Under the pieces are notes generated by a model. It was not told where the DNA came from and searched no databases. It was given only the letters and a program-made list of their open reading frames with translations. The position numbers and the translations under genes are program-made. Positions 959 to 49,535 of a DNA stretch of 52,837 bases are shown here, piece after piece. The stretch comes from an uncultured Planctomycetales bacterium (GTDB lineage: Bacteria > Planctomycetota > Phycisphaerae > UBA1845 > PWPN01): contig CAZQEN010000004.1 in NCBI GenBank assembly GCA_964591605.1, forward strand, positions 1 through 52,837, given 5' to 3'. How positions within the stretch are numbered: the first letter of the stretch is position 1; every line of letters starts with the position of its first letter.

Positions 959-963
959 AGAGC

Positions 964-981: not shown

Positions 982-1028
982 CGGTCGTGCGAATGAGGTG
1001 CACGCAACACCCGCGTGGTGCCCGCGAA

Positions 1029-1056
1029 GTGAGACGTGAGACGTGAGACGTGAGAC
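1029..1056. repeat. heptanucleotide microsatellite (GTGAGAC)x4
   Basis: Four perfect tandem copies read directly. They overlap the first possible start codon of ctaA. Confidence 0.95.
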
Positions 1057-2976: not shown

Positions 2977-2980
2977 TGAC

Positions 2981-3249
2981 GTAGGGTGGGCTCTGCCCAC
3001 CCCTCCCAGTGGGGTAGGGTGGGCTTTGCCCACCATTCCCGGCCGCCACGGGGGGCGGCCGCTACAGCAGCAGGGTGGGCATTGCCCAACATGGCGACGC
3101 CGGAGGTTGGCGCGTAACAGGAATGGTGGGCGGGGACCGCCCTGCAAACGGTGGGCGGAGCCCACCCTACAAACGGTGGGCAGAGCCCACCCTACAAATG
3201 GTGGGCAGAGCCCACCCTACGGGTTGATGGTGGGCAGAGCCCACCCTAC
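2981..3249. repeat. REP family A array: 8 copies of GGTGGGC-N3/4-GCCCACC(CTAC)
   Basis: Copies lie at 2981-3001, 3014-3034, 3072-3090 (degenerate), 3125-3145 (degenerate), 3050-3070, 3075-3095, 3200-3220 and 3229-3249. The first three have GTAGG on the left and the last ones have CCTAC on the right, so the two groups face each other. Confidence 0.9.
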
Positions 3250-3260
3250 GGAGTGTGCTT

Positions 3261-3902
3261 ATGTCGGATATGGCCGTCATGGAGCAGGAGCTGACGGAAT
3301 CGCCGGGGAACCGGATGCCAGCGGAGAGCTACGTGCCGCCGGTGCCGGATCACAAGTTCGGCATGTGGCTGTTCCTGGCGAGCGAGGTGATGTTTTTCAC
3401 CGGCCTGCTGGGGACGTACCTGGTGCTGCGGCTCTCGGACCCGGCGGGGTTTGACCGGGAGGCGGCCAACCTGCACTGGGAGCCGGCGGCGATGAATACG
3501 CTCGTGCTGATCTTCAGCAGCCTCACGATGGCGCTGTCGATCCACTGGGCGCAGGTCGGCGATGCGGGCAAGACCAAGCTGTTCCTGATCATCACGATTC
3601 TGTGCGGTTTCGCGTTCATGGGGATCAAGGCGTATGAGTATGCGGGCAAGTTCAGCCACGGAATCTATCCGTCGACACACGTGTTCTACGCGTGCTACTT
3701 CGTGCTGACGGGAGTGCACGGGCTGCACGTGGTGGGCGGCGTGATTCCGCTCATCTGGGCGCTGGGCCGGGTGATGGTGGCCCGCGACGTGCGGATGCGG
3801 GCGGGCTTCCTCGAACTGCTGGGGCTGTACTGGCACTTTGTCGACCTGGTGTGGATCTTCCTGTTCCCGTTGTTCTATCTGCTGCACAGCGCTCCGCATT
3901 GA
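3261..3902 (+). CDS. ctaE: cytochrome c oxidase subunit III
   Basis: FGMWLFLASEVMFFTGLLGTY and YWHFVDLVWIFLFPLFYL motifs. ATG 3261 lies 7 nt after ACGGAG. GTG 3255, ATG 3270 and ATG 3279 are alternative starts. Confidence 0.93.
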   Translation: MSDMAVMEQELTESPGNRMPAESYVPPVPDHKFGMWLFLASEVMFFTGLLGTYLVLRLSDPAGFDREAANLHWEPAAMNTLVLIFSSLTMALSIHWAQVGDAGKTKLFLIITILCGFAFMGIKAYEYAGKFSHGIYPSTHVFYACYFVLTGVHGLHVVGGVIPLIWALGRVMVARDVRMRAGFLELLGLYWHFVDLVWIFLFPLFYLLHSAPH

Positions 3903-3998
3903 TGGGATGGCCTGCCGGAGACGTGCACGACGGGATCAGGTTTCGACCCCCGAATGGCGGCAGGCCCGCCATGGCGGACATCGAGCTGGAGAATAGTG

Positions 3999-4553
3999 AT
4001 GGAGAAGACGCAAACACACGGTGCACCCGAGGCGGTCGTGCATGCCGTCCCGCACGGGGGCGCTCACGATGCGGCCCACGGCCCGACGGTCAGCGTGTAC
4101 TACACGATTTTCGGGTGCCTGGCGGTGCTGACGTTTCTGACCGTGCTCGTGTCACGTCTCCACCTGCCGCCGGTGGCGGCGGTGGTGATGGCGTTTCTGA
4201 TCGCCATCAGCAAGGCCACGCTGGTGGTCGCGTTCTTCATGCACCTCAAGTACGACCCGAAGGTGCTGCGGATCATGTGCGTGGTGCCGGTCGTGCTGAC
4301 GATGATCGCCATGATGGCGCTGATGCCGGATATCGCGATGAGCGGCCCGCAGGCGGCCGGCCCGACCGACGTGGCCCGCCAGATCATCGCTGAGTATGAG
4401 GCGGGCGGAGGGGCCGGTCACGGCAGCCAGCACGCCGAGGGCGCGGAGGGGCACGAAGCGGCCGGGGGGGATGAGGCTGCGGCAGAGGGTGATGGCTCCT
4501 CCGGCGAGCAGCCCGCCGCCGAGGATGCCCAGGAGCAGCCAGCCTCGAACTGA
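3999..4553 (+). CDS. ctaF: cytochrome c oxidase subunit IV (prokaryotic COX4/CyoD-like small subunit) with Gly/Ala/Glu-rich tail
   Basis: The pattern HGPTVSVYYTIFGCLAVLTFLTV...ISKATLVVAFFMHLKYD, with three TM helices, is typical of this family. It sits directly after ctaE. ATG 3999 is preferred over the ORF-track start at 3954. Confidence 0.75.
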   Translation: MEKTQTHGAPEAVVHAVPHGGAHDAAHGPTVSVYYTIFGCLAVLTFLTVLVSRLHLPPVAAVVMAFLIAISKATLVVAFFMHLKYDPKVLRIMCVVPVVLTMIAMMALMPDIAMSGPQAAGPTDVARQIIAEYEAGGGAGHGSQHAEGAEGHEAAGGDEAAAEGDGSSGEQPAAEDAQEQPASN

Positions 4554-4603
4554 GACACGCCGGAGGCGCATTCTGGAGTGCGGCTGCGGCGGCTGTGAGC
4601 TCT

Positions 4604-4659
4604 CAGGAAGGCAGGAACGCAGGAAGCGGGATTCGTTTTCCTGCGTACCTGCGTTCCTT
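4604..4659 (+). terminator. octamer-repeat hairpin, putative 3' end of the cta transcript
   Basis: (CAGGAAGG)(CAGGAACG)(CAGGAAGC) is followed by the inverted TTTCCTGCG / TACCTGCG / TTCCTTATCG. ACGCAGGAA 4617-4625 pairs with TTCCTGCGT 4638-4646. A T-rich tail (TATCGTTGTTGTG) follows. Confidence 0.4.
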
Positions 4660-4806
4660 ATCGTTGTTGTGAATGCGGGGGGCGACGTTTCATAGGGCGA
4701 CGGGGCGCCATTCCGCAGCAATGGAAGCGCCCCCGAGCCAAAGCGGCGTCGCAGCCGCCGCACTCCAAAGGGCTTGCGCCCGAGCGCGTGATCCAGCCGG
4801 CCGTCC

Positions 4807-5727
4807 ATGGCACCAGCACCCATCGAGATCGAGTCTTTGTCGCACCGCTACCGCGAGCGGCTCGCCCTCGACAGCGTGTCGCTGGAGGTCCGGCCCGGCG
4901 AGGTGTTCGCCCTGCTCGGGCCCAACGGGGGCGGAAAGACGACGCTGTTTCGCATTCTGTGCACGTCGATGGCACCGTCGGCCGGCCGGGCGAGCATCTG
5001 CGGGCAGGATGTCGTGACGCAGGCCGACGCGGTGCGGCGGCTGATCGGGGTCGTGTTTCAGCACCCGAGCCTCGACGCGAAGCTGACAGTGCGCGAGAAC
5101 CTGATGCACCAGGGTCACCTCTACGGCCTGGCGGGGGCTGCTCTGCAGTCGCGCATCGATGAGATGCTGCAGCGGTTCGCCGTGGTGGACCGGGCCCGCG
5201 ACCGGGTCGATACGCTCTCGGGCGGGCTGGCCCGGCGGGTGGACCTGGCCAAGGGGTTGCTGCACCGCCCGCGCGTACTGCTGCTCGACGAGCCGAGCAC
5301 CGGCCTGGACCCGCAGGCCCGATGGAACGTGTGGCAGTATCTGGACCGGTGCCGCCGCGAGGACGGGCTGACCGTCCTGATGACGACGCACTTCATGGAC
5401 GAGGCCGACCGCTGCGACCGCGTGGGGATCATCGACGCGGGGCGGTTGGTCGCGGTGGGCACGCCGGAATCGCTGAAATCGGAGATTTCGGGCGACGTGC
5501 TGCACATCGAGGGCGACGATCCGGAGGCGTTGTGCGCGGGACTCAAGCAGCGGTTCGGCCTGGAGGCCCGGCTGGTCGACGGCCAGGTCCGCGTCGAGCG
5601 CCCGCGGGCCCACGAGTTCATCCCGCAGCTCGTGGAGGCGTTTCCCGAGAGAATCCGGTCCGTGTCTCTGAAAAAACCGACGCTCGAAGAGGTGTTCATC
5701 CATTGCACGGGGCACCGGTTCGAGTGA
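4807..5727 (+). CDS. ABC transporter ATP-binding protein (ABC-2/DrrA-NosF-like)
   Basis: Walker A GPNGGGKTT, signature LSGGLARR, Walker B LLLDEPSTGLD and H-loop TTHFMDEA. Confidence 0.93.
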   Translation: MAPAPIEIESLSHRYRERLALDSVSLEVRPGEVFALLGPNGGGKTTLFRILCTSMAPSAGRASICGQDVVTQADAVRRLIGVVFQHPSLDAKLTVRENLMHQGHLYGLAGAALQSRIDEMLQRFAVVDRARDRVDTLSGGLARRVDLAKGLLHRPRVLLLDEPSTGLDPQARWNVWQYLDRCRREDGLTVLMTTHFMDEADRCDRVGIIDAGRLVAVGTPESLKSEISGDVLHIEGDDPEALCAGLKQRFGLEARLVDGQVRVERPRAHEFIPQLVEAFPERIRSVSLKKPTLEEVFIHCTGHRFE

Positions 5728-5815
5728 ATTGCCGATTGTCGATTTCCAATTTCCGAATTCAGGGCGCATCGTCTTCACATTGGCAATCGACCATCGGAAT
5801 GTGGGAATTGAGACG

Positions 5816-6643
5816 ATGTCCGAGGCCATCATCCATCCTCAAGTCGCTCCATCGCCTGCCAGTGTGGGCCTGCTCTCGACGCTGACCCTCTGGCGGCGTG
5901 AGTTTGTGCGGTTCATCCGCCAGCGCAGCCGCGTGGCGGGGGCGCTGGGCTCGCCGGTGGTGTTCTGGGCACTCATCGGCCTGGGGTTGGGGACGAGTTT
6001 CAACCCGCCGGGCAGCACGGTGAGCGTGAGCTACCTCGAGTACTTCTTTCCGGGCACGCTCGTGCTCATTCTGCTGTTCACGTCGATCTTTTCGACCATC
6101 TCGCTGATCGAGGACCGCCGCGAGGGCTTTTTGCAGGCGGTTCTCGTTTCGCCGGCGCCGCGGTACAGCATCGCTCTGGGCAAGATCCTGGGCGGCACGA
6201 GCCTGGCGTGGCTGCAGGGGGTGCTGTTCCTGCTGCTGGCCCCGCTCAGCGGGATCCACCTGACGCCCGGCGCGGTCGCGGGGCTGGTGCTCATCACTTT
6301 TCTGGTGGCGTTCGGCCTGACCGGGCTGGGGTTCCTGATCGCCTGGCCGATGGAGAGCACCCAGGGCTTTCACGCCATCATGAACCTGTTTCTGATCCCG
6401 ATGTGGCTGCTGAGCGGGGCGTTGTTTCCTGCCGCCGGGGCGCCGGGGTGGCTACAATGGGTGATGCGGGCCAACCCCGTGACCTACGGCGTGGCGGCCG
6501 TCCGGGCGATGTTTTATGACGACGTTCGGGCCGTGACCGGCGGATCGCCGCCGACGCTGGCCGTCTCGATGACGGTGATCGTGCTATTCGGTATCCTGAC
6601 CCTGGCCGCCTCCGCCAAACTGACGGCCCGACAGCGAGGATGA
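5816..6643 (+). CDS. ABC-2 type transporter permease
   Basis: Six-TM hydrophobic ORF immediately after the ATPase. ATG 5816 is preferred; TTG 5729 is also possible. Confidence 0.8.
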   Translation: MSEAIIHPQVAPSPASVGLLSTLTLWRREFVRFIRQRSRVAGALGSPVVFWALIGLGLGTSFNPPGSTVSVSYLEYFFPGTLVLILLFTSIFSTISLIEDRREGFLQAVLVSPAPRYSIALGKILGGTSLAWLQGVLFLLLAPLSGIHLTPGAVAGLVLITFLVAFGLTGLGFLIAWPMESTQGFHAIMNLFLIPMWLLSGALFPAAGAPGWLQWVMRANPVTYGVAAVRAMFYDDVRAVTGGSPPTLAVSMTVIVLFGILTLAASAKLTARQRG

Positions 6644-6647
6644 CATC

Positions 6648-7388
6648 ATGACTCACGACCCTGATCCTGCACCTGCACCTCAGCCGCCGTCTGGACCAGC
6701 CGGCCCCGGCGCGAGTGTGCGACGATGGGGACCCCTGCTCGTGTTGCCGGTCTCCGTGCTGTTTGTGGCGTCGGCGTTTGCTCTGAAGTGGAGGGCCGAG
6801 CAGGCCCGGGAGCGGGCGGCGGCTGATGGGACGCAGATCAGCAGTTGCTGCGTCCACCACGGCGCGGAGCCGCAGACGATCTCGCGGGCGGTGCCGGATT
6901 TCTCGCTCACTGAGCGGAGCGGCCGGACGGTCGCCTTGAAGGATCTCGAAGGGAAGGTGTGGGTGGCGAACTTCATCTACACGACGTGCCCGGGGCCGTG
7001 CCCGATCATGACGTCGCGCCTGGCGGCGCTGGCGAAGGAGCTGCCGGTTCGCGACGATCTGATGTACGTCTCGTTCAGCGTCGACCCCGATCATGACACG
7101 CCGGAGGTGCTGGCGAAGTTCGCCGACCGGTACGGAGCGGACGCGAAGCGCTGGCTGTTTCTGACCGGTCCGCGCGAGGAGATTCACACCCTTTCGACCA
7201 CGGGTTTCCTGCTGGCCCTCAACCGCACGACGCAGCCCTCGGCCGACGGCCCGATCGTCCACAGCACGCGGTTCGTCCTCGTCGGCCGCGACGGGAGGAT
7301 TCACAGCTACTATGACGGGATCGACGCCAAGGCGGTGGCGCAGCTCAAGGCTGAGATCCTCAAACTCCTGGAAGACAAGCCCACGTGA
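6648..7388 (+). CDS. SCO1/SenC family copper chaperone (thioredoxin fold)
   Basis: N-terminal TM segment, CxxxC motif in FIYTTCPGPCPIM, FSVDPDHDTPEVL, and a conserved His in VHSTRFVLVGRDG. Confidence 0.9.
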   Translation: MTHDPDPAPAPQPPSGPAGPGASVRRWGPLLVLPVSVLFVASAFALKWRAEQARERAAADGTQISSCCVHHGAEPQTISRAVPDFSLTERSGRTVALKDLEGKVWVANFIYTTCPGPCPIMTSRLAALAKELPVRDDLMYVSFSVDPDHDTPEVLAKFADRYGADAKRWLFLTGPREEIHTLSTTGFLLALNRTTQPSADGPIVHSTRFVLVGRDGRIHSYYDGIDAKAVAQLKAEILKLLEDKPT

Positions 7389-7840
7389 TCGAGGTCTCCG
7401 ATCTTCCGACGGTCAACGCGAGTCTGAACGCGACGTCCGCGGTGCTGCTTGCGCTGGGGTACCGTTTCATCCGCCGGCGGCGGGTGCACGCCCACCGGGT
7501 CTGCATGCTGGCGGCATTCGGCGTGTCGATCGTGTTTCTGGCCTGCTACGTGACGTATCATGTGCTCCGGCGGCGGATGACCGGCGAGGCGCACACACTT
7601 TTCACCGGGACGGGCCTGGTACGGCCGATCTATTACACGATCCTCATCTCGCACCTCATCCTGGCGATGGCCGTCGTGCCGCTGGCCTTGACGACGCTGT
7701 ATTACGCCCTGCGGGCCCGGTTCGAGACGCACCGCCGGGTCGCCCGCTGGACGCTGCCGATCTGGCTGTACGTGTCGGTGACGGGAGTGGCGGTGTACCT
7801 GATGCTGTATCACCTCTATCCGGCATCGGCCGGGCCGTGA
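7385..7840 (+). CDS. DUF420 family membrane protein (oxidase-cluster associated)
   Basis: Four-TM ORF with LNATSAVLLALGYRFIRRRRVHAHRVCMLAAF, typical of DUF420 proteins found next to SCO1 and cta genes. Its GTG start overlaps the SCO1 stop (GTGA). Confidence 0.8.
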   Translation: MIEVSDLPTVNASLNATSAVLLALGYRFIRRRRVHAHRVCMLAAFGVSIVFLACYVTYHVLRRRMTGEAHTLFTGTGLVRPIYYTILISHLILAMAVVPLALTTLYYALRARFETHRRVARWTLPIWLYVSVTGVAVYLMLYHLYPASAGP

Positions 7841-37410: not shown

Positions 37411-37950
37411 GTGGACGATCGAGAGCAGACTCAACGGCTGCAACAGGGTGACCCGGAGGCACTGCGCGCGATCTATGTGCGGTACAAGGACCACCTGCTG
37501 ACGGTGGCAACCTGCCTGCTGCTGCATCGCGAGCCGGCCGAGGATGCGTTGCACGAGGTGTTCGTGACCCTGGCCGGTGAGGCTCGTCGCCTCCGTGTTC
37601 GCGGGAGTCTGAAGTCGTATCTCGCGGCGTGTGTGGCGAACCGGGCCCGGGATGAACTCCGCCGGCGGGCACGCAGGCCGGCCGGCGCGGACGGGCTCGA
37701 GCAGACGGCCAGCCCGGCTGCGGATCCGCTCAAGACGGCGATCGATGCCGAGGAGACTGCGCGTCTGGGGACAGCTTTGGCCGAGCTGCCGTTCGAGCAG
37801 CGCGAGGTCGTGGTGCTGCACCTCCAGGCGGAGATGACCTTCGTCGAGGTGGCGCAGCATCAGGGAGTCTCGATCAACACGGTACAAAGCCGTTACCGGT
37901 ACGGAATGGACAAACTGCGGTCGCTTTTGCAGGCAGGAGTACGCACATGA
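37411..37950 (+). CDS. ECF-type RNA polymerase sigma factor
   Basis: Region 2 (YKDHLLTVATCLLLHREPAEDALHEVFV) and region 4 HTH (LPFEQREVVVLHLQAEMTFVEVAQHQGVSINTVQSRYRYGMDKLR). GTG start. Confidence 0.9.
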   Translation: MDDREQTQRLQQGDPEALRAIYVRYKDHLLTVATCLLLHREPAEDALHEVFVTLAGEARRLRVRGSLKSYLAACVANRARDELRRRARRPAGADGLEQTASPAADPLKTAIDAEETARLGTALAELPFEQREVVVLHLQAEMTFVEVAQHQGVSINTVQSRYRYGMDKLRSLLQAGVRT

Positions 37951-39182
37951 AGCCCGCAGACAACATAGAGCGTGTCATCAGAGAATTGAGAGTACAAACA
38001 AGCGCCGAGCTCGATCAGCGCATCCTCTCGGACGCCTTGCGCGCCCTGGAGCATGGCGACGCGGGCGCGGCGGACTCGACCGCAAGGGGCGGACTTCGTC
38101 CTCTTTGCCGGTCATCCTGGAGACGCATCATGCAGAGCAACTGGATCAAGCCCCTCGCCGCTGCGGCGGCCATCGGGATCGTGGCGATATTGTTTGCTAC
38201 CCTGCACCGGTCGGCACAGCCCGCGTACGCCCTTGAGCAGACGATGCAGGCCAACCGCGGCCTGCGCTTTGTCCACATCCGTTTCGGGCCCGCGGGTGAG
38301 GTGGTGAGCGAGACGTGGGCGCAGATCGACGAGCAGGGACAGGTCGTTCGGCTCAAGATGGCCCTCAACCGGACGGAGGACGGCCCCAAGGTCGTGCTCT
38401 GGGAAGGTGACAAGGCGGAAGTGTGGTTCAAGGACAAGCGGATCGTCGGGGTGCACCGTGATTCGGAGACGATCACCACTTTCGCGAACATGCTGAGGGA
38501 GTTCGAACCCGTCAGAGTGATCGAAGAGCTGTATCGTGCGCAGGCTGAGGGGCGCGTCGCAGTCGAGACTTCGCTGCCGGTCAGACGGGGCGATCCGATC
38601 ACGTTGACGGCGACGACCGCTCAAAAACCCGGCCAGCAGACGGTCTATCTGATTGACGCGCAGACCAAGCTGCTGCAGCGTCGAGAGGTGTACGAGTGGG
38701 ACGGGAGGCAGCATCAGCAGACATCACGCTGGGATTATCTCGATTACAACCAGGAGCCGGCGGAGGAAGTTTTCACGCTCGGAGCGCCGGCCGACACCGT
38801 CCGAATCGACCATACCACGCAGTTGATCGGTCTGCCGAAGGGGACGCTGTCTGACGCACAGATCACGGTCCAACTGGCTCGGGAGTTTTTTGAGGCGTTG
38901 ATCGCCGGAGATCACGCCCGGGCCGGCCAGCTTCTGAGCGGATTGCCGGCCGAGCGGGTGCCCGAGATCCTCCAGAAGCTGGGCTGGGATATGAAGTTTC
39001 TGCGGATCGTTTCGATTGGCGAGCCCGTGCCGCAGCCGGTCGCCGGCGTGGGCGGGACGGAGGTCACCTGCCAGGTGGAGGTGGAGGTGAACGGGGTTCC
39101 CACGATCCGGACGTTTACGCCCGCCATTCGCGCGGTGTCATCGAGTCAGCCGGAGCGGTGGGCCATCCACGGCGGGACGTGA
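37947..39182 (+). CDS. putative anti-sigma factor / single-pass membrane protein with ~300-aa extracytoplasmic domain
   Basis: Coupled to the sigma gene by an ATGA overlap. It has a ~65-aa cytoplasmic part and the TM segment WIKPLAAAAAIGIVAILFATL. No domain was recognised in the C-terminal part. Confidence 0.6.
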   Translation: MKPADNIERVIRELRVQTSAELDQRILSDALRALEHGDAGAADSTARGGLRPLCRSSWRRIMQSNWIKPLAAAAAIGIVAILFATLHRSAQPAYALEQTMQANRGLRFVHIRFGPAGEVVSETWAQIDEQGQVVRLKMALNRTEDGPKVVLWEGDKAEVWFKDKRIVGVHRDSETITTFANMLREFEPVRVIEELYRAQAEGRVAVETSLPVRRGDPITLTATTAQKPGQQTVYLIDAQTKLLQRREVYEWDGRQHQQTSRWDYLDYNQEPAEEVFTLGAPADTVRIDHTTQLIGLPKGTLSDAQITVQLAREFFEALIAGDHARAGQLLSGLPAERVPEILQKLGWDMKFLRIVSIGEPVPQPVAGVGGTEVTCQVEVEVNGVPTIRTFTPAIRAVSSSQPERWAIHGGT

Positions 39183-39383
39183 ACGCCGTGCGCCTGTCCA
39201 GGCATGCAGAAAGCTGATGCAGGAGAGCAGGCCGCGGAATCAGGCGGCCTGCTCGCTGTTCCGGGGGCTCTGTGCGAGCCTTGCTGACACAGCGCGTGCG
39301 GCGGCGTAAACGGCCGCGTCGCATCGGCTACCATCTTTCGCGAGCCCTGCATGTGGACTTGGCTCTCTGGAGATGATTCAGCC

Positions 39384-39515
39384 ATGTGTGATGAGACCAC
39401 CACGCGACGAGCGGTATTGAAGGCGATCGGTCTGGGCGCGACGGGACTGGGGCTGCAGACTGCCGCCGCGGCCAAGGTCTTCATGGTCTGGGACTTCTTC
39501 TCCCGCAATCACTGA
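39384..39515 (+). pseudogene. 43-codon ORF consisting only of a twin-arginine signal peptide (probable decapitated oxidoreductase gene)
   Basis: MCDETTTRRAVLKAIGLGATGLGLQTAAAAKV, then 11 unrelated codons and TGA. The signal resembles that of the Gfo/Idh/MocA gene at 48333 ([25 protein letters not shown]). Confidence 0.4.
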
Positions 39516-39740
39516 GAGTGCATCCCAAAGCTCCGCAGCGCCCAACTCTGTGGCTGGTCGATGCGACGACCGTCCCGCTGGAGTCTTCGGCGGTTTCTCA
39601 CGCCGCAGGGATCTGGACAAGAACTGGTGTGCCGCCAGAGGATTCGCGGGTCGACTGCCAGGTGCTCTTCCTCAGCCTCCTCGCGCTCGCCCTCAAAGAA
39701 ACCAGGACCCCCGGCGTGTGGTATCATGACAGGGTGCGAC

Positions 39741-40703
39741 ATGGCGAGACCTCAATCTCTGAAGTTGTTGGCAACCGCAGAGAGGATCTCTATGGGCGGC
39801 CACTATTTCAAACCAATCCGGAACCGCGGATCGAGTAACAGGGCTCGACTTCAGTCAGACGTGAAGGAGTTGCTGACGCTTCTGTCTATCTGCGTCATCG
39901 AACCGTTTGTCCGCCTGACGGACAACAACGCCCTCGCCATTCCTCTGGACCTCACGACAGCTACCGATCCCGAAGACCCCATAGCGAATCCCGCTCATCC
40001 CGTTTGCGCAGCGTACGCCAGCAGCGACTACTGCCGGGAGTCCTGGCAATACCATCTGGCAGAGCTAGCCCGTCGGCCGCAGTCCCATTGGCACAGGTGT
40101 GATTACGATAGACTCTGCGCGATCGTACCCGTTGTCTACCGGAACAGATGCCTGGCGGCCGTCAAACTGGCCTGTCCGGCCTCGATGCCGGAGGGGGATT
40201 TCGAATCTCACGTGGAGCTTCTGGACAGCCTGGTCGAGGGCTTCGTGATGGCCCACAGGGATCTCCTCAGCCGAATGGCGCACGAGCGGGCCATCTCCGG
40301 GGCCGCTCGACCCTCTTCGCGCGACGATGACGGCACGCGTAACCAGCATCCCACTCATCCACAGGTTCTCCGGGCCATCGATTACATCAACAAGCACCTT
40401 TCGGATCCCAAGCTGACCGTTGGTGCCATCGCACGCGAGCTGGACATCGATTCTTCCTACCTCGGCAATCTCTTCGCTGATCAGATGGGTCAGCGAATGA
40501 GTTGGTTTATAGCCTCTCAGCGCGTCGAACTGGCCAAAGACTTGCTTGCCACCACCCATCGACAGGTCAAAGCGATTGCCCTCCAAACCGGCCATGCCAA
40601 CCCGAACTGGTTCTGCCATATCTTCCGTGTTCATACCGGTCTGACGCCCAACGGTTATCGACGGCAGTCCCGCCAGCAACCACGGATCTCCTCGGATTCC
40701 TGA
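39741..40703 (+). CDS. AraC family transcriptional regulator with Cys/His-rich PocR-like sensor domain
   Basis: C-terminal double HTH (LTVGAIARELDIDSSYLGNLFADQMG...VKAIALQTGHANPNWFCHIFRVHTGLTPNGYRR). The N-domain has HPVCAAYASSDYCRESW...HWHRCDYDRLCAIVPVVYRNRCLAAV. The start is uncertain: 39726, 39741 or 39792. Confidence 0.85.
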   Translation: MARPQSLKLLATAERISMGGHYFKPIRNRGSSNRARLQSDVKELLTLLSICVIEPFVRLTDNNALAIPLDLTTATDPEDPIANPAHPVCAAYASSDYCRESWQYHLAELARRPQSHWHRCDYDRLCAIVPVVYRNRCLAAVKLACPASMPEGDFESHVELLDSLVEGFVMAHRDLLSRMAHERAISGAARPSSRDDDGTRNQHPTHPQVLRAIDYINKHLSDPKLTVGAIARELDIDSSYLGNLFADQMGQRMSWFIASQRVELAKDLLATTHRQVKAIALQTGHANPNWFCHIFRVHTGLTPNGYRRQSRQQPRISSDS

Positions 40704-40905
40704 GAGAACGTCGGGCTGAACGGGCCACTCTTCCATAGCCACTTTTGTTCCGGGCCGCTCCATCGGCACGGCGGTCGCACAAACAGCGCAGGATTTCCGG
40801 AATCCGTATTGTGGTTCCTGAACCGATTTGTTTTCCGTGTGAAGTGGAGAGTGGAGAGATTAGGGTGAAGGGTGAAGTATGAAGTGCTGGTCAGGGATCG
40901 GAGGA
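40551..40905. repeat. direct repeat copy 1 (araC 3' end + downstream non-coding block)
   Basis: Aligns by eye, base for base, with 41918-42256. Most positions are identical, including a 27/27 run GGCACGGCGGTCGCACAAACAGCGCAG. Confidence 0.9.
40795..40824. promoter_or_regulatory. conserved palindromes TTCCGGAA and GGTTCCTGAACC (candidate operator), copy 1
   Basis: Located at 40795-40802 and 40813-40824, about 140 nt upstream of the PEP-CTERM gene. Both motifs are identical in copy 2. Confidence 0.4.
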
Positions 40906-40961
40906 GATGGTCTGTTCGAAGTCGGATGGGCCGAATCCGGTTCCGTCTTTAGGAGGGGCGC

Positions 40962-41645
40962 ATGATGAGAAGTCGGATGGGAAGAGTCGTCTTGGCGGCT
41001 CTGGCTGTCTGTGTCGCGCAGGGGGTCTCATTTGGACAGGCGTTTACGGAAACGTTCGACACCGGGATCCCGGCGTCATGGTCGATCGTGGATAACTTCC
41101 CCATCCCGGGGAGCCCGGCTCACAGTGCCGTGCCGTGGACGACCAATGTGCTGGAGGGCATGGGCAACTACACCGCAGGAAGCGGCCAGGCGGCTACCGG
41201 CAGTTCGTACAACCACTCCGGGCAGTATGACATTTCGCTGATCATGCCCGCGTTCACCATCTCCCCGGTACCGGGTGAGGACAACCTCCGCTACCGGGTC
41301 AACTATCAACGCGTGGACGCCTTCGAGGCGTTCGACACGAACATCAGCATCAACGGCGCACCCTGGGTGACGATGGTGCACGAGACTTCCAGCCTGGGTG
41401 CGTGGTACAGTGCCGGCCCGCCCAACGTGATGCGAGTGATCGATATGGGCTTCTTCGGGGCCATGCCAGGCGACCTGGTGCGTGTGGAGTTCCGCTACTA
41501 CAGTACCTACCTGCTGCCGATGGTACACAACGAGTACGTCCAGATCGACGACGTGAACTGGGTGCTGCCGGAGCCGGGAACTCTGGCCCTGCTGGGACTG
41601 GGCGGCTTGACTGCGATCCGGCGCCGGCGCGCGGTCGAGCATTGA
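40962..41645 (+). CDS. PEP-CTERM sorting domain protein with choice-of-anchor-J/MAM-like N-domain
   Basis: AGGAGG RBS and signal peptide MMRSRMGRVVLAALAVCVAQGVSFGQA. The motif FTETFDTGIPASWSIVDN is present. The C-terminus VLPEPGTLALLGLGGLTAIRRRR combines PEP, a TM helix and an Arg cluster. Confidence 0.88.
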   Translation: MMRSRMGRVVLAALAVCVAQGVSFGQAFTETFDTGIPASWSIVDNFPIPGSPAHSAVPWTTNVLEGMGNYTAGSGQAATGSSYNHSGQYDISLIMPAFTISPVPGEDNLRYRVNYQRVDAFEAFDTNISINGAPWVTMVHETSSLGAWYSAGPPNVMRVIDMGFFGAMPGDLVRVEFRYYSTYLLPMVHNEYVQIDDVNWVLPEPGTLALLGLGGLTAIRRRRAVEH

Positions 41646-41917
41646 AGGCACGTTCGCACTGTCGCGCTCGATCGACCACGTAGACGCGTCAGGCGGCGGC
41701 CGCTTTCTCTGGCAGAGGCCACTGAAAGATCTTAAATGAGTCGTTAACCACTTGTGTGCCCATGTGGCACCCTTCTTTGACGAAGACCGCGACGTGGAGG
41801 GTGATGATCTGATGACTTTCAGGCGCTGCGTTTCCGAATTCGCGAGGTGACGCTGGGCGGTCCTGCTCCGCTTACTTGGGCTCGCCCTCAACGGAACGAG
41901 GATTAGGGTTGTTCACA

Positions 41918-42070
41918 ACCACCCATCGACAGGTCCAAACGATTCCCCTCGAAAGGGGCCATGCCAACCCGAACCGGTTCCGCCACGTCTTCCGTGTTCA
42001 TACCAGTCTGACGCCCAACGGGTATCGACGGCGGTGCCGCCAGCAACCAAGGGTCTCCTCGGATCCCTGA
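41918..42070 (+). pseudogene. orphan 3' fragment of an araC-family gene (last ~50 codons)
   Basis: TTTHRQVQTIPLERGHANPNRFRHVFRVHTSLTPNGYRRRCRQQPRVSSDP aligns with the C-terminus of the regulator at 39741-40703. No upstream HTH or sensor domain is present. Confidence 0.75.
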
Positions 42071-42158
42071 GAGAACGGATCGAACGGGCCTCTCTTCCAT
42101 AGCCACTTGCGTTCCGGGCGATTCCGCTGGCACGGCGGTCGCACAAACAGCGCAGCAT

Positions 42159-42188
42159 TTCCGGAATCCATATTGCGGTTCCTGAACC
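42159..42188. promoter_or_regulatory. conserved palindromes TTCCGGAA and GGTTCCTGAACC (candidate operator), copy 2
   Basis: Located at 42159-42166 and 42177-42188, about 340 nt upstream of the giant gene start. Confidence 0.4.
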
Positions 42189-42523
42189 GGTTTGATTTCT
42201 GTTCGAGGCGGAGAATGGCAAGATTAGAGTGAAGTACTGGGTCGTAGCTAGGAGGAAATGATCCGTTTGCATCGGACGGGCGTCTCCATGAAAACGCCGG
42301 ATGATGCCAAGGCGGATGCGAAGAATCGTCTCAGTATGACAGCGCGTGCAACCGGACCCCGCCATGGGGCCGTTCGATCTGCGCGGAATGGGAGATCGGA
42401 CCATCGACGAGTTGGCCCGCGAAGACTGGCCGGCGGCGTGTTCGCGAGAGACTTCAGCGGAGGAGAGGCAAACCCCGCTTGACAATGCGCCGCATGCTGT
42501 CCGGCAGGGGCAGGAGAAGAATC

Positions 42524-45500
42524 ATGAGCCGTATTGCAGGACGCTGGCAGGGAACCTTGCTGGTCGCGCTGGGTGCGGTGGTCTTCGGGATCGTCGGCGA
42601 AGGCTGCACACCAGTGCAGCAGCAGAGCGCAGCCACGCTTGAGATGGCGGAGGAACGCAACGTCGGCATGGCGGCATGGCACGGATCACGGACGATCGAG
42701 TGCATGACCATTCCCGACCCGCAGTTGCGCGAGGAGTGCCTGCGGAACCGCGACGGGCTGTACTGGCAGTATTACTGGGCGATCTACCGCGGCGAGGCAT
42801 CGATCCCGGCCCTCGATGAGCCCCGCTGGCAGGCGGAGATGCAACGAATCCACTCCTCCTACGCCACAGGGGGCATTACCGCCGCACAGATCCGCGCGGA
42901 GCGGAAGAATTCCCGGGGCGTCCTGCTCGGTCCTTCCGGCATGATCTCGGTGGAGATCCCGATGCAATCGTCCGGCGGACCGGTCTTTTTCGCACAACCG
43001 GGTTCGCAGACAAAGCTCAATGTGGCTGGCTTCCCCATCCAGGTCTACAACGTCTCCGGTTTCATGGTCGCTCAGGTTGTGCCGGTGGGTCCCGATTGGG
43101 AGGTTACCGTCAACGACCTCAACCTGACGCTGCAGCACGTTTCTGGCGACATGCGGGCGATGACCACAGCGGCCCGCGACGCCGCGGGCAACGCGAGTAC
43201 GCCCGCCTCGGCGACCCTCTCGGTCGACCCGCTGAACACTGCACGGGTCAAGGGTACGCTCGATATCGTCTTGGCCTTGGGCAACCCCAACCGAGGCGAT
43301 CCGGTGTGGGTAGCCCGGCTGCCGATGACCGCTCCCAATCCCCCGGTCAACGCGATGACGTTCACCACCGGCGGTCTGTACGCCCCGGGCACAACGGTGT
43401 TCCCGACGCTCGCGTCTACCGCCAATGCCAACGCCGACTGCAACAACAACGGTATTCCCGACGGCCCGGAAATCGCCGGCGGCCAAGCCCAGGACTGCAA
43501 CCATAACGGTGTGCCGGACGACTGCGACATTGCCGCGCGCGCTGCTGACGACTGCAATGCCAACGGTGCGCCCGACGCCTGCGAGATCGCCAGCAGGACG
43601 CAGGGTGACACGAATGTCAACGGCCTGCTGGAGCCAGCGTGCGAATTCGTGGACTGCAACGGCGACGCCATCGATGACTTCCTGCAGCTTACCGCACTGG
43701 ACGTAGACCGCGACGGTTCTATCGACACCTGCGAGCAGGACTGCAACGGCAACGGCGTGTTCGATTACATCGATCTGAGTCTTGGCACATCGGCGGACTG
43801 CAACGTCAATCGTGTGCCCGATGAATGCGATGCGGGTACACAGCCGGCATTCGCTCCAGCGGTTAACTACGCAACTCCCTTAGCTGACAGCGCCCTGGTC
43901 CTGGGCGACTGGGACGGTGACGGCGATCTGGACGTGGCCAGCGCCAGCGATTCAGCCCCCCAGGTTGCGCCCCTGGTCAACGACGGCAATGGCGGATTCA
44001 CCCCGGCGCCCGTTGCTCCGCTCACGTCGGTCACCAATGGCATGGTTGCCGCCGCCTTGGACAACAACCCTTCGCCGGACCTGGCCGTCGTGAGCAGTTC
44101 CGCCGCCACGCTGACCGTGCTGCTCAACACCGGCGGCGGCACGTTCATCCCGCAGACGACCATCGCCCTGACCGTGGGGTCCGCACCTTACTCCGTCGCA
44201 GCGGGCGATCTGGATGGAGACCTCGACAACGATCTGGTAGTTGCCAACATCCAGGCCCATACGTTCTCGGTGCTGCTGAATCAGGGAAACGCGACGTTCG
44301 CGCCCCGGGTGGATTACACGAGCGGAGGACAGGGTCCGATCTCCGTCGCGTTGGGCGACATCGACGGCGACGGCCGTCTTGACGTGGTGCTGGCTAACCG
44401 CTTCTCGCGGACGATCGGCTTGCGGCTCAATGACGGCTATGGCCACTTTACCGCCCCGCCATTGGCGGTAGCGGTAACCGGAGATCCGATTTACGTCACG
44501 ACGGCCGACCTCGACGTTGCGGGCCGCCACGACATCATCGCCCTGTGTGATTCAACGGGGGAGGCAGTGATCTATCAACTGGACGGCACGACCCTGGTGT
44601 TGCGGGCGACCATCGAGTCAGGGTCGAGCTGCAATCCCAAATCCGCGGCCGCGGCCGACTTCAACAGGGACGGCGGGCTTGACGTGGCGCTAGCCTGCAA
44701 CGGCACGGCTTCACTTCGCCTAGCGGTGCGTGACGCCGCGGGTGCCTACCCCTCTCCGACATCATCTATCTCCGTGGATGCAGGCCCGGTATCGGTCCAG
44801 GCCGGCCGTCTCGACGCAGATACCGAAAGCGACTTGGCCGTCACCGCCGGTGCGGGTGTCTGCGTGCGGCTCGCTCGGCCGGTCACGGGCAGCAGCCCCG
44901 ACTGCAACAGCGACGGCGTGCCCGATGAGTGCCAGACCGCGGATATCGACATGGATGGGCGGCCGGATATCTGCGATAACTGCCCCGAGGCAGCCAACCC
45001 GGGCCAGGAAGACGGGGACCTCGACGTCGCAGGCGACCTGTGCGACAACTGCCCCGGGCGGGCCAACCCGGCCCTGGCCGCCGTGCTGGCCGACAGTCTC
45101 CGGCTGGTCGTGGCGGACTCCAGCTCCCTGCGTTTGTTCAATCCGAACGCCGCGCTGATCAGCTCGACGGCTCTGGCCGCTCGCAGCGACGTCGTCCGCC
45201 AGGGGGACCGGCTTATCAGACTGGATCGTGAATACGGCCTGATGTACGTGTACGACAGCAATGGCAACCAGATCGACGTGATCTCCTTCACCGGCCGCGG
45301 CGAGGTCGTCATGAACGGCGACCGCATCGTGCTGATCGACGATCTGGGCGTGCGTATCCTGGACCTCGACGGCAACGTTCTGTTGACGCTTCCCACGCCT
45401 GCACGGGCCCGCGTGCAGATTGACGCCAACGGCATCATTGTGGTGTGGGATGGGAGCCCTGGTCAGGTCGTTTTCCTGAACCGTGATGGCTTGTGGCAAG

Positions 45501-47878
45501 GTGAGCAGAACAGCTTTCGCCGGATTGCCGTTACTGCCGATGGCGATCGGATCGTGACTGTCACCGAGACAGAACCCGGCGTCTACCTGATCACTATCTT
45601 TGATCGAGGGTTCTTCACGGTCAAGATCGCGGAACGGATGGTCGACGGACAGGAGCCCCGGATCATCATCGACGGGGACCGGATCCTCATCATCGAGTAT
45701 TCCGACACGTGGATCCTCGATCGAGATGGCAACCCGATCAACGTCATCGTGGGCCACGGGCCCAAAGATGTAACCATCAACGGTGACCGCATCGTCATTA
45801 TCGAATACTTCGCCTACGGCTTTGCGGTACGCGTTTACGATCGCAACGGTTCTGCGATCGGCGGCAAGATCTATCAGTCGGATCTCCTCTTCACCATCAC
45901 CAAGGTCATCATCAACAGCGACCGGATCATCGTGGTACGCGCCGATGGGATTCGCCTGCATGACCGGGACGGCTACGAGGTGGGCGACCGGATTCCCGTT
46001 ACGGTTCAGGGACCCCGACAGCCCACGGTCCTCGTCGAGGGTGATCGGATCGTCGTGATCGACGATAACTCCATTCGCTTCTTCGATCGCAACGGGCAGA
46101 TGAAAGGTTCGCCTGTCGCGACCAACGGCACGGGGGAGGTCGTCGCGGCGGGCGATCGCTTCGTCGTCATCGACAATGCGGGCATCCGGATCTACGACCG
46201 CGACGGCAACTTCGTGTACTCAACCGGGACCACCGGCCGGCCGACGGTCGTCGTTGGCGGTAGCCGAATCGTTCTGATCGACGATTTCAGCGTCCGCATC
46301 CTGGACCACGACGGCAATCTGATCGGCCGCGAGATCTTCCCCGCCGGCCGGGCCAGCGTCAGCATTGTGGGTGACCGGATCATCATCAACGATTCGGAGA
46401 AAGTCCGGGTCTATAACCTTTCGGGCCAGGCCATCGGCGCGGCTGTCAAGACAAGGAATCGCTTTCAGGCCGATGCCGACGGGGACGGTGTCGGCGACGC
46501 CTGTGACAACCTGCCGGACGTCGCCAATCCGGATCAGGCCGACTCGGATGGCGACGGTCTGCCCGACGTCATCGACAACTGCCCACGCCACTTCAATCCG
46601 GACCAGTTTGACGGCGACGGGGATGGTGTGAGCGATGCCTGCGACGAATGCCCGGACACCATCATCGGCGCGCCGGTCCACGGTACTGGCTGTCCGTGGT
46701 TGGTGCCCGGTGATTTCGATCGCGACGGGGATGTGGACGGCAACGAAGTTCAGCTCTTTGCGAGCTGTGCCGCCGGACCTGCGATTCCCCTCCTGCAGAA
46801 CTGCGCTTTCGTGGATTTTGATCGCGACGGTGACGGCGATCTGAACGACTTTGGCCGTCTCCAGGTATGCTTCAGCGGCCAGGACCAGCCCGCCGATCCA
46901 GACTGCGACGCTGCGTTGACCGTCTCGCAGCTCAACATCACGTTCGACGGCCAGTACCACCCCGACACCGACTGGGGCATGGTGAAGGTGCCGTACGTCG
47001 GCTCCGCCGGGGTCCTGTACTTCAACCTGGCCGTCAACGGCGCCTGGCAGGTCCGAAACATGCCTGTGCTGAGCCCGCGCGGTGCTGGCGTCCGCCAGGC
47101 GGACCGCTTCTACTTTGACCTGGAGGTGCCGACCGGCACTGACGTGCCCTCGTTGTACTACGCTTGGGAGCTCACCCACGCCGTGCGGACGGAAATGCCC
47201 GCGGGCGCGACCTTCGCGATCATGGCCGACGAGTGCTCCTCCTATTCCAAGTCCAGCGGCACCCAGGGCCAGAACATGGACCTCCAGGATGCCGGCGGTG
47301 TGCTCGATGGACGCCAGGTCGTCGGCCAACCGGCCACCCAGACGGACTTCCCCAACCAGGAGTGCGGCGAGAACGAGTGCGTCCCTGCCGCGATCTCCAA
47401 CAGCATCCAGTGGCTGAACAAGAAGTACAACCTTGGGATTCCCCCCGAGGACACCACGATCGAGAAGATGAAGGAAGTGGCCAAGTGGGATAAGGAACTC
47501 GGCGGCTGCGACGACAACTGGCCGCAGAGGAAACAGGACTGGATGAAGAAGAAGGGGTACAAGGTCACGACCACTCCCGTGCCCCGGTTCAACATTGCCA
47601 GCGTTTATGAATCCATCAAGAAGGGCTGCGACGTGGAGGTTCAGATCAACCATCATTGCGCGGCCGTCACTGGCATTCAGAAGCTGGCTGCTGACGATCA
47701 GTATGACGACGACTGGGTACTCAAGCTCTCCTCCGACGACGGTAAGGGCGACGGGGGCAAAAAGGCGACGACCGACACCGTCGTTTATGATGGCGAGTTC
47801 CAGCGGTTCCACGGCGCTCCGTGGGTCGAAAACCATTCACCGGACATGATCGTCGTTGAATGCAAGGAGGACCAGTGA
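42524..47878 (+). CDS. 1784-aa multidomain surface/secreted protein
   Basis: AGGAGA lies 6 nt before ATG 42524, and the hydrophobic N-terminus is [17 protein letters not shown]. Domain order with approximate nt ranges: unknown N-terminal domain; DCNxNGxPDxC repeats (43435-43832); FG-GAP repeats such as [13 protein letters not shown] and [14 protein letters not shown] (43860-44880); TSP3 motifs DxDxDGxxDxCDNCP (44899-45070 and 46462-46660); 12 tandem ~40-aa repeats (45099-46452); dockerin-like module (46709-46906); Cys-His C-terminal domain (46907-47875). Confidence 0.9.
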
Positions 47879-48332
47879 CTTGCCGACCGGACACAAAGCC
47901 ACCGCTGAAGTCCTGAATCCCACGAGTCGGATGTGGCAGGATCCAGCATCAACTGACGGGCGACAAAAGTGAGAATGGGAGCGCCAAGCGTTGGCCCCAG
48001 GACCCGGGCAACTGCATAATTGTCGTCGCGGCGGAACAAAGCCAGCGAACGATTCTAACATATCGCATGTGAGGGATTGCAGACCAGGAGGGAGAGATCT
48101 GTGCGACACCGCCGTCTTGGCTGCCGGTGCTGGGTTCTCATTAGGAGTGCCCGGCCGCGGGACGGCGGTGCCGAAAATGCAGTATTGGGAGATCGGGAAC
48201 GAATTGAAGTTGGTGATTATGGTGCGTTTCCAACCAACCACCGGGATGCACTCTGACACTGACAGCATCCGCGAGCAACAGCTCGAGCACTCCGCCAAGT
48301 CGCTGCAAGGAGACGCTCAAGGAGACCGGTCC

Positions 48333-49535
48333 ATGGCTGTTGATTCCATCACGCGGCGTTCGCTGTTGCAGGCGATGGCTCTTGGCGCGGCCGGACTGGG
48401 GCTGCAGGCTGCCGCCGTGGCACAGGAGCCGGCGATTGAGGGGTTCGAGCCTTCCCAAACCGACCCCGATGCGTCGCGGGGCTGGAAACCGATTTCGGAC
48501 CGCCGGCTCCGCGTCGGCCTGGCGGGTTACGGCGTGTGTAAGTTCGGGACGGCGTTCAGCTTTCAGCATCATCCGAACGTCGAGGTAGCGGCGGTGACGG
48601 ATCTGGATCCGGAGCGTTGCGCGACGATGGCGAAGGTGGCGCGGTGCGAGAAGACGTATGCGTCGGTCGAGGGAATGCTCAAGGATGATCGGATCGAGGC
48701 GGTGTTTCTGGCCACTGATGCCCCCAGCCATGCGCGGCTCGCGATCGCGGCGCTCGATCGCGGCAAGCACGTGGCGTCGGCGGTGCCGGCCGTGTGGGGG
48801 TCGCTCGAGGATGCGGATGCACTGTTCGAGGCGGTGAGACGCAGTGGGCGGACGTACATGATGTTCGAGACCTCGTGTTTTCATGAGGATCTTTACGCCA
48901 TGCACGAGATCTATGCGGCGGGTGGCTTCGGGAAGCTGGTGTACTCGGAGGGCGAATACTATCACTACACGGAAACGCCGATTGACTCCTTCAGAGGCTG
49001 GCGCGTGGGCTCGCCGCCGCAGTGGTACCCGACGCATGCGACCGCGTATTACGTGGGCGTGACCGGCGGGAGCTTCACCGAGGTCTCGTGCATGGGCATG
49101 CCGAGCCTCAGGCCGTTCCTGAAGCCCGAAAACAACCGTTACAAGAACCCATTCGGCACGGAGATTGCGCTGCTTCGCACGAGCGAAGGCGGCATGGCCC
49201 GGATGGTGATCAGCAAGGATACGCCCGGCCACGGGGGCGAGATGGGGCGCATCCGCGGACAGAAGGGCAGCTTCTACGGCAAATACGAAGGGCTCGAGAA
49301 GAACCTGCCGCCCACGCGTCGGCCGCCGCTGCCGCCGGGTGTACAGGCGGGGGGTCATGGTGGCTCACACGGCCCCCTCATGGCCGAGTTCGTCGCCGCG
49401 ATTCTGGAAAGCCGCCGGCCGCGGGTGGATGTCGTCGCGGCGCTGAACATGACGGTGGCCGGGATCGTCGCGCATCAGTCGGCGCTCAAGGATGGCGAGT
49501 TGCTGAAGATCCCGCAGTATGCGTGGCCGGGGTGA
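48333..49535 (+). CDS. Tat-exported Gfo/Idh/MocA family oxidoreductase
   Basis: AAGGAG RBS, Tat signal [27 protein letters not shown], and Rossmann N-domain RVGLAGYGVCKFGTAF...VAAVTDLD...IEAVFLATDAPSHARLAIAALDRGKHV. Confidence 0.9.
   Translation: MAVDSITRRSLLQAMALGAAGLGLQAAAVAQEPAIEGFEPSQTDPDASRGWKPISDRRLRVGLAGYGVCKFGTAFSFQHHPNVEVAAVTDLDPERCATMAKVARCEKTYASVEGMLKDDRIEAVFLATDAPSHARLAIAALDRGKHVASAVPAVWGSLEDADALFEAVRRSGRTYMMFETSCFHEDLYAMHEIYAAGGFGKLVYSEGEYYHYTETPIDSFRGWRVGSPPQWYPTHATAYYVGVTGGSFTEVSCMGMPSLRPFLKPENNRYKNPFGTEIALLRTSEGGMARMVISKDTPGHGGEMGRIRGQKGSFYGKYEGLEKNLPPTRRPPLPPGVQAGGHGGSHGPLMAEFVAAILESRRPRVDVVAALNMTVAGIVAHQSALKDGELLKIPQYAWPG

Follow-up and report, generated by a model that had tools for sequence, protein, structure and literature searches.

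An AraC-type regulator gene and a putative operator ahead of a PEP-CTERM gene and a giant adhesin-like gene in a Phycisphaerae genome

What connects a regulator gene with the two predicted surface-protein genes that follow it, and could one control element serve both? This question is raised by a 52,837-nucleotide stretch of contig CAZQEN010000004.1 from the metagenome-assembled genome of an uncultured planctomycete of the class Phycisphaerae; the whole stretch is called the window here. PEP-CTERM proteins are abundant in environmental bacteria, and one of the genes in question encodes such a protein. As the first-pass annotation had stated, three genes lie on the same strand:

39792-40703, plus strand: AraC/XylS-family regulator, 303 aa (HTH_18, homologues, AlphaFold2 and Foldseek)
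40962-41645, plus strand: PEP-CTERM surface protein, 227 aa, with a signal peptide, a choice-of-anchor J domain and a PEP-CTERM tail
42524-47878, plus strand: secreted or anchored multidomain protein, 1784 aa (Pfam, internal repeats)

The trio had been described as a self-contained surface module driven by duplicated promoter blocks, with the regulator starting at 39741. Family alignment and an independent gene call (303 aa) place this start 51 nt downstream, at 39792, where the protein begins with MGGHYFK. Overall, the observation was confirmed and its interpretation was partly supported. We consider it reasonably probable that the regulator is a local AraC-type activator with a conserved operator before both the PEP-CTERM gene and the giant adhesin-like gene, the second operator having been left there by the duplication and decay of a second regulator unit. 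Binding of the regulator to this operator, activation rather than repression, and co-regulation of the giant gene are what we infer from sequence comparison.

The putative operator and its place in the regulator family

The regulator has 139 full-length homologues that are 43-67% identical to it, and 30 other loci were compared with the window, 23 regulator-bearing loci of representative genomes and 7 further assembly contigs. A family alignment defined an operator core that consists of CAGCGCAG followed by two direct ATTTCTCGGAT-like half-sites, the starts of which are 21 bp apart. Direct half-sites phased by 21 bp are the classical site geometry of the AraC family (araI1/araI2). The window holds two such sites:

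40779-40829, plus strand: operator A, CAGCGCAG with the half-sites ATTTCCGGAAT and GGTTCCTGAAC, 21 bp apart
42143-42194, plus strand: operator B, with half-sites identical to those of operator A

The ATG at 40962, preceded by an AGGAGG Shine-Dalgarno sequence, is 133 nt downstream of operator A, and the ATG of the giant gene is 330 nt downstream of operator B. An nhmmer model of the operator, built from 12 loci with the window sequences left out and run over 432 kb, recovered both sites (40779-40822, E=2.5e-7; 42143-42189, E=8e-6) and nothing else in the 52.8-kb window better than E=0.26. The operator stands just downstream of the regulator gene, on the same strand, in about 21 of 25 other homologous loci from Phycisphaerae and Planctomycetota. 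Nine loci outside the model-building set carry it as well, on the same strand and 40-250 nt (once about 1 kb) past the regulator stop codon. Extra copies precede additional target genes in L032 and L010 and lie between PEP-CTERM genes in L033.

The genes past the operator were then compared. Across 25 regulator-selected loci, 19 of the 24 PEP-CTERM-like open reading frames (ORFs) fall in the 4.3-kb same-strand zone after the regulator gene, which makes up 12.7% of the strand-specific sequence (binomial P=2e-13 for the enrichment). The first gene past the operator encodes a PEP-CTERM protein in 15 of 23 assessable cases, the window counted; otherwise its product is large and has a signal peptide. 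Among these non-PEP targets, two carry cadherin/Big_9 or cohesin/HYR domains, the rest being orphans of 700-2000 aa, and operators precede large adhesin-like genes in L017, L019, L023, L015 and L004. An operator before a giant adhesin-like gene appears, from these comparisons, to be typical of the regulator family, which supports a function for operator B. One regulator had been proposed to co-control both genes: an element conserved across the regulator subfamily does stand before both, but co-regulation itself would be a prediction drawn from that element.

In the non-coding blocks that carry the two operators, terminators were found at chance level, and an Rfam scan of 39200-42700 returned nothing, with no riboswitch or leader. 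A sigma-54-like -24/-12 match (TGGCACG-N4-TCGCA) lies directly 5′ of both operators (42128-42143 and 40764-40779); in copy B it reads TGGCACGGCGGTCGCA, one mismatch away from TGGCACGNNNNTTGCA, and in copy A it has two mismatches. Sigma-54 was rejected as the main mechanism, since 21 operator sites of other loci do not keep the match at this spacing and its number across the window is that expected by chance. A separate kind of intergenic repeat, unrelated to the operator, was seen in the 7.6-kb contig of L026. It resembles repetitive extragenic palindromic elements, is 40-58 nt long with CTGATAGGAAATTTGATTCCGCGNGGGGCGGCGGCGTGG followed by a G/C run, and occurs in four copies of 86-100% identity (778-836, 3711-3769, 6670-6728 and 7563-7602).

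The regulator and its two proposed target proteins

The assignment of the regulator to the AraC type is borne out by Pfam HTH_18 (PF12833, E=6.3e-14, 52.5 bits against a cut-off of 33.6) and by structure: its double helix-turn-helix (HTH) DNA-binding domain superposes on those of AraC, MarA, SoxS and AdpA (Foldseek template modelling score, TM, 0.77-0.94). The AlphaFold model (predicted local distance difference test, pLDDT, 82.9) combines an α/β sensor with a canonical AraC DNA-binding domain. In the sensor, which comprises the N-terminal 170 aa, H69, C72, C81, H88, H99, C103 and C109 are invariant across the family and C120 is nearly so, and the fold has GAF-type domains (CodY, 3p01) as its relatives in Foldseek. 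From this Cys/His pattern, a metal or redox cofactor would be a reasonable guess. The sensor had also been called PocR-like. This holds at the family level, where 20 of 38 relatives match PF10114 at E<=1 (best 2.6e-6), but not for the window protein itself, which scores 15.1 bits (E=0.02) against a gathering cut-off of 23.9. We regard the sensor of the window regulator as a GAF/PAS-like fold that is at most a distant relative of PocR.

Like PocR of the pdu/cob regulon, the protein has a sensor domain followed by an AraC DNA-binding domain. Unlike PocR, it reaches 51 bits against a cut-off of 500 with the NCBIfam PocR equivalog, over the DNA-binding domain only, and no propanediol or cobalamin genes lie near its gene. 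Its scores with the NCBIfam equivalogs of the AraC type are all far below the cut-offs, which sets it apart from these proteins. The two-HTH domain and the N-terminal ligand-type domain are shared with AraC/XylS activators of surface or adhesin genes (Rns/CfaD, ToxT and TIGR04094), and, as with Rns/CfaD and ToxT, the regulator gene adjoins the surface-protein gene that it presumably controls. TIGR04094 ('YSIRK-targeted surface antigen transcriptional regulator') gave a partial match over the DNA-binding domain (E=1.8e-11). In contrast to the cupin/jelly-roll sensors of AraC, ToxT and Rns, the sensor here is Cys/His-rich and GAF/PAS-like. The targets carry PEP-CTERM rather than being YSIRK/LPXTG or pilus proteins, and the operator sequence is specific to this Phycisphaerae subfamily.

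The PEP-CTERM protein passes the curated cut-offs of PF07589 (22.5 bits; cut-off 20.7) and TIGR02595 (23.6 bits; cut-off 16), as well as that of the choice-of-anchor J model NF038128 (31.3 bits; cut-off 30) over residues 28-199, in agreement with its first assignment. Its tail, LPEPGTLALLGLGGLTAIRRRRAVEH, comprises a PEP motif, a hydrophobic helix and a basic cluster. No exosortase, as had been noted, is encoded among the eight multi-transmembrane ORFs of the window, which are cytochrome oxidase subunits and transporters. An orthologue of 81% identity directly follows a regulator of 60% identity and its operator in L030 (2300-4135), where the next gene is unrelated and encodes 530 aa. Another, 85% identical, lies inside an array of PEP-CTERM genes in L033 (469-1215), where it is followed by an operator and not directly preceded by a regulator gene. 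The higher identity of the target (81-85%) than of the regulator (60%), together with the context in L033, suggests that the two adjacent genes may not share one history. An apparent 818-aa PEP-CTERM fusion in L029 (5405-7858, the GTDB copy) was rejected as an artefact of a masked N run inside the PEP-CTERM tail; the ENA copy of this locus, L030, has a normal 227-aa gene.

The giant protein is built as follows:

First part: signal or anchor segment; orphan domain, aa 30-300; Cys-rich DCNxNGxPD repeats, aa 300-440; FG-GAP/VCBS propeller, ~450-790
Following part: TSP3, ~800-850; second propeller, DUF5711-like, ~860-1310; TSP3, ~1310-1385; EF-hand-like loops; C-terminal module
46910-47875, plus strand: C-terminal module, 322 aa (aa 1463-1784), a β-sandwich followed by a papain-like fold

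An AGGAG sequence lies 8-9 nt before the ATG at 42524, and the protein starts with a hydrophobic signal or anchor segment. The FG-GAP and TSP3 modules that had been recognised were found by Pfam (FG-GAP_3, PF13517, E=4.5e-32 in six stretches; TSP_3, PF02412, E=4.4e-11, 42.7 bits against a cut-off of 25). The dockerin-like modules were not, as residues 296-450 and 1378-1470 gave no dockerin family even at E<=1 and the EF-hand hits were sub-threshold. About seven Cys-rich 19-aa repeats, DCNxNGxPDxCD/E, recur with 57-nt spacing (43435-43830 and 44899-44934; aa 300-440 and ~795) and match no Pfam model; repeats of this type are also present in a neighbouring gene of L019. No homologues of the N-terminal 300 aa were detected, and the protein is the sole representative of its 50% identity cluster.

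The C-terminal module matches 35 proteins at 28-45% identity. Most of them are standalone proteins of 320-550 aa with signal peptides; the annotation assigns some to Acidobacteriota or Gemmatimonadota, and in none of them does a Pfam domain cover the module. Three residues are invariant in the 35 sequences, C157, H249 and D276, corresponding to Cys1619, His1711 and Asp1738 of the giant protein, and are putatively catalytic; a nearly invariant FPNQE motif lies upstream. In the AlphaFold2 model (pLDDT 94.4, predicted TM score 0.92), a β-sandwich precedes an α+β domain, a long helix of which begins with the Cys. The top Foldseek hits in the PDB (probability 1.0) are staphopain (1y4h/1pxv), the Ufm1-specific protease UfSP (5xda) and the pseudomurein endoisopeptidase PeiR (8z4h), all papain-like cysteine hydrolases. 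By sequence, the module matched no PDB chain (E<=10) and no Pfam or NCBIfam model. It resembles staphopain (C47), UfSP (C78) and Pei (C71) of clan CA in its invariant Cys, His and Asp, of which the Cys lies at a helix N-terminus and the His where a β-strand begins, and it resembles papain-like peptidases in having N/Q upstream, here within FPNQE. It differs from staphopain, UfSP and Pei in its obligatory N-terminal β-sandwich, and it has no sequence membership in C47, C78, C71 or C39. The earlier proposal of a C-terminal Cys-His peptidase-like domain is thus supported at the fold level, as a predicted papain-like Cys/His/Asp domain. The module belongs to a large uncharacterised family that lacks a Pfam or NCBIfam model: a profile search found 1519 cluster representatives at E<=1e-3 and 372 at E<=1e-30, with members (proteins P0121-P0295 among them) that are standalone, contain 2-3 tandem copies or carry the module at the ends of proteins of more than 1000 aa. 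The genomic context of three standalone homologues was heterogeneous and uninformative.

The direct repeat and the origin of the second operator

How did a second operator come to stand before the giant gene? The first-pass annotation had placed the same block before both structural genes on a ~350-bp direct repeat that included the last ~50 codons of araC. The repeat is present and does hold these codons (54, with the stop codon), but it is ~430-455 bp long, and a further segment recurs beside it:

39642-39707, plus strand: segment upstream of the regulator gene, which recurs directly left of copy B
~40540-40994, plus strand: repeat copy A, with the last 54 regulator codons and the stop codon, the 258-nt intergenic region and the first 11 PEP-CTERM codons
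41838-41902, plus strand: relic of the upstream region of a second regulator copy, matching 39642-39707
~41905-42339, plus strand: repeat copy B, with an araC 3′ pseudogene fragment (41909-42070), the intergenic block and a PEP-CTERM stub

Where the two copies align well, they share 85-88% identity; their alignment contains two indels, and a 21-nt repeat core occurs twice in the window against 0 expected in shuffles. By segment, the identity is 87% in the araC 3′ part, 84% in the first intergenic segment, 91% in the operator, 71% in the second intergenic segment and 82% in the PEP-CTERM 5′ part. Copy A appears to be the ancestral arrangement, as the same order of regulator, operator and PEP-CTERM orthologue is found in L030. 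Copy B appears to be the remnant of a complete second regulator unit that lost ~830 bp of its regulator gene, because sequence from ahead of the regulator gene recurs at 41838-41902 (blastn, 66 nt with 73% identity, E=2e-6 window-wide). In the araC fragment of copy B, the family-invariant W273 and G283 are replaced, and its PEP-CTERM stub consists of 12 codons (42301-42339) and lacks the AGGAGG Shine-Dalgarno sequence of the real gene. The idea of duplicated promoter blocks, in the sense of a purpose-built second promoter, does not fit this decayed unit with its pseudogene debris.

The same debris, the araC fragment with its lost invariant residues and the stub without a Shine-Dalgarno sequence, speaks for an alternative that we regard as unlikely but that has to be weighed in full: copy B may be a decaying relic of duplication with no regulatory role, the giant gene having its own promoter in 42340-42523 or being regulated independently, and the genes being neighbours through an accident of rearrangement. 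Several observations weigh on this side and against the co-regulation that we propose. The identity of the operators (91%) is not significantly above the neutral benchmark of 87% and is statistically indistinguishable from the neutral parts at 84-87%. The distance of 330 nt from operator B to the start codon is unusually long compared with 133 nt for operator A, the unique 184 nt at 42340-42523 could hold an independent promoter, and a promoter scan recognised a sigma-70-type promoter in neither block. Relatives of the giant protein were found within 10 kb of a regulator homologue in none of the 30 other loci, and tblastn of the giant protein against all regulator loci gave only generic TSP3 or EF-hand-like repeat matches. 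The giant gene is thus never beside regulator homologues in the loci examined. Two domain assignments also weaken our overall reading: that of PocR is sub-threshold for the window regulator, and the peptidase fold is backed by marginal Foldseek E-values (1.6e-3, with a TM of 0.55 on staphopain). The neighbourhood of all three genes, a check that the first-pass annotation had named, is absent from the other loci examined; the trio is not conserved there, and the regulator/PEP-CTERM pair alone recurs. Together with the lack of an exosortase in the window, this leaves no self-contained module.

Against a mere relic, both half-sites of operator B are perfectly kept. The three differences between operators A and B fall at positions of low information (0.68, 0.12 and 0.68 bits against a mean of 1.13), and the chance probability that all 22 bases of the two 11-nt half-sites stay unchanged is ~0.05 at the ~13% divergence of the 87% pseudogene benchmark. 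This retention is suggestive of constraint. Moreover, operators before large adhesin-like genes are common in the family, and duplicated operators before extra targets occur independently in L032 and L010.

A repeat that spans the 5′ and 3′ ends of genes is also what recombination between units would give, and it brings up cassette exchange or antigenic variation, in which recombination at the repeated block would place different surface-protein genes behind a single promoter. The downstream targets do vary between loci with related regulators, and the PEP-CTERM orthologue (81-85%) is more conserved than the regulator (60%), with different contexts in L030 and L033. However, only two copies of the repeat exist and they have diverged by 12-15%, hence there was no recent exchange. 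Neither a recombinase gene nor inverted repeats appear in the window listings, silent cassettes are absent, and the one apparent structural variant, between L029 and L030, is the masked-base artefact described above. We consider shuffling of this kind very improbable.

Returning to a shared operator as the preferred explanation, we provide a putative mechanism for the locus. The Cys/His-rich GAF/PAS-like sensor of the regulator would perceive a small molecule, a metal or a redox signal. A regulator dimer would bind the subfamily site, CAGCGCAG with its two direct ATTTCTCGGAT-like half-sites, which lies 80-150 bp past the stop codon of the regulator gene, and drive the adjacent PEP-CTERM (choice-of-anchor J) gene, the product of which would be processed by an exosortase encoded elsewhere in the genome. 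A second regulator unit would once have stood after the PEP-CTERM gene; its regulator would have lost ~830 bp and its target would have shrunk to the 12-codon stub, while the half-sites of its operator survived unchanged and are found today 330 bp ahead of the gene for the 1784-aa protein. Since this second regulator decayed and its half-sites remained, control of both genes most likely falls, in trans, to the surviving regulator. The giant protein may be a secreted or envelope-anchored, Ca-binding, adhesin-like scaffold that presents a papain-like hydrolase domain at its C-terminus; its surface location and catalytic activity, like the nature of the regulator's signal, are what we infer from its domains and those of the regulator.

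The edges of the stretch and known regulons

Did the genes arrive together from elsewhere? The flanks of the stretch carry two related gene starts:

39351-39515, plus strand: orphan ORF with a twin-arginine translocation (Tat) signal, 54 codons, twin-arginine motif TRRAVLKAIGLGATGLGL (translation)
48333-49535, plus strand: intact Tat-signal Gfo/Idh/MocA oxidoreductase gene at the right flank (Pfam GFO_IDH_MocA, E=8e-15)

The decapitated Tat-signal ORF that had been reported at the left edge is real, with its coordinates corrected from 39384-39515 to 39351-39515. The intact gene shares 78% identity over its start (48331-48426) with positions 39382-39477, and the likeness stops where the signal-coding part (96 nt) ends. 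The orphan ORF appears, from this match, to be a 5′ fragment of a Gfo/Idh/MocA-type gene, with a rearrangement breakpoint at the left edge of the three-gene stretch. An old insertion or rearrangement, by which 8.85 kb came to lie between two related gene starts, could account for the likeness, and so could, equally well, paralogous signal peptides.

Composition bears on the same point. The G+C content is indeed lower from about 39.5 to 42.3 kb, at 0.59-0.615 across 39.5-42.5 kb against ~0.65-0.68 in most of the window, yet comparable dips occur at 7.5-8.5, 11-12.5, 20.5-22, 24.5-26 and 45-48.5 kb, and ~1.1 kb of 39.5-42.5 kb is non-coding or pseudogenic. Tetranucleotide usage at 39-47 kb is the most atypical of the window (tetranucleotide usage deviation correlation 0.73-0.79 against a mean of 0.84, standard deviation 0.04), a deviation that is mild, partly due to the internally repetitive giant gene and thus confounded, so that it does not decide on a foreign origin. 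The G+C content at third codon positions (GC3) is 0.69, 0.81 and 0.80 in the regulator, PEP-CTERM and giant genes and was judged to match that of the neighbours on both sides (0.76-0.81).

The stretch from ~39478 to 48330 might therefore be taken for a horizontally acquired, self-contained island inserted in or next to a Tat-signal oxidoreductase gene, which would have brought the regulator and both structural genes together. The orphan fragment at one edge and the related intact gene at the other, the lowest tetranucleotide correlation and G+C content of the window, and the GC3 of the regulator (0.69 against 0.76-0.92 elsewhere) are in line with such an origin. We nevertheless find it quite unlikely, on several grounds. 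No mobility genes, and specifically no integrase or transposase, tRNA or terminal inverted repeats, appear in the ORF and repeat listings of the window. The flanking repeat reaches only 78% identity and is confined to a signal peptide of the kind that paralogues commonly share. In GC3, the PEP-CTERM and giant genes equal the genes that flank them, and the repeats inside the giant gene confound the deviation in composition. The arrangement of regulator, operator and PEP-CTERM gene is widespread and vertically typical of Phycisphaerae, and, with no exosortase in the window, the stretch is not self-contained.

Two other gene groups of the window were recorded. Directly upstream of the orphan Tat-signal fragment, at 37411-39182, the gene of an extracytoplasmic function (ECF) sigma factor (179 aa) overlaps by 4 nt a 411-aa gene (37947-39182), which has one transmembrane segment and no Pfam match and is probably its anti-sigma factor. 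A respiratory cluster occupies the left end of the window (26-7840), with cytochrome c oxidase subunits I, III and IV, CtaA, a UbiA-type heme O synthase, an ABC-2 permease and a DUF420 protein.

To our knowledge, regulation of PEP-CTERM genes through a cis-element has been described only for Proteobacteria, in the sigma-54-dependent PrsK/PrsR system, and a full-text literature search found no paper that links AraC-type regulators with PEP-CTERM genes. In PrsK/PrsR/PrsT, a conserved DNA motif and a sigma-54 promoter lie upstream of PEP-CTERM genes, and PrsR is an NtrC-type sigma-54 enhancer-binding response regulator that acts genome-wide and is confined to Proteobacteria (Haft et al. 2006, PMC1569441). 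The operator described here is similar in that a cis-element precedes PEP-CTERM genes, mostly single-gene units with long upstream regions, and in that a dedicated regulator can be predicted from the distribution of the element (PMC1569441). In contrast to PrsK/PrsR, the regulator is of the AraC type and is encoded beside its target, and the motif is a direct repeat phased by 21 bp. Membership in the sigma-54 regulon was rejected on the non-conserved -24/-12 match and its chance count, and because the regulator is not of the NtrC type.

We advance, tentatively, a lineage-wide system by which Phycisphaerae would control their surface proteome: AraC-type regulators with PocR/GAF-like sensors would act on a signature operator before PEP-CTERM and giant adhesin-like genes, the regulon would grow by duplication of units and loss of the extra regulators, and a member of the papain-like family would have been recruited at this locus. 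If true, this system would be a functional counterpart, by analogy, of the 'PEP-CTERM box' regulon of proteobacterial PrsK/PrsR. Current understanding is not overturned, because AraC-type regulators beside surface genes are common. What the locus may offer is a concrete operator/regulator pair for a phylum other than Proteobacteria, that is, a defined cis-element and a candidate sensor for the surface biology of Planctomycetota. It would further provide an example of how a regulon grows, in which a regulator/operator unit is duplicated and the spare regulator decays, and it points to a large secreted family of β-sandwich and papain-like proteins (~1500 cluster representatives) that has no Pfam or NCBIfam model.

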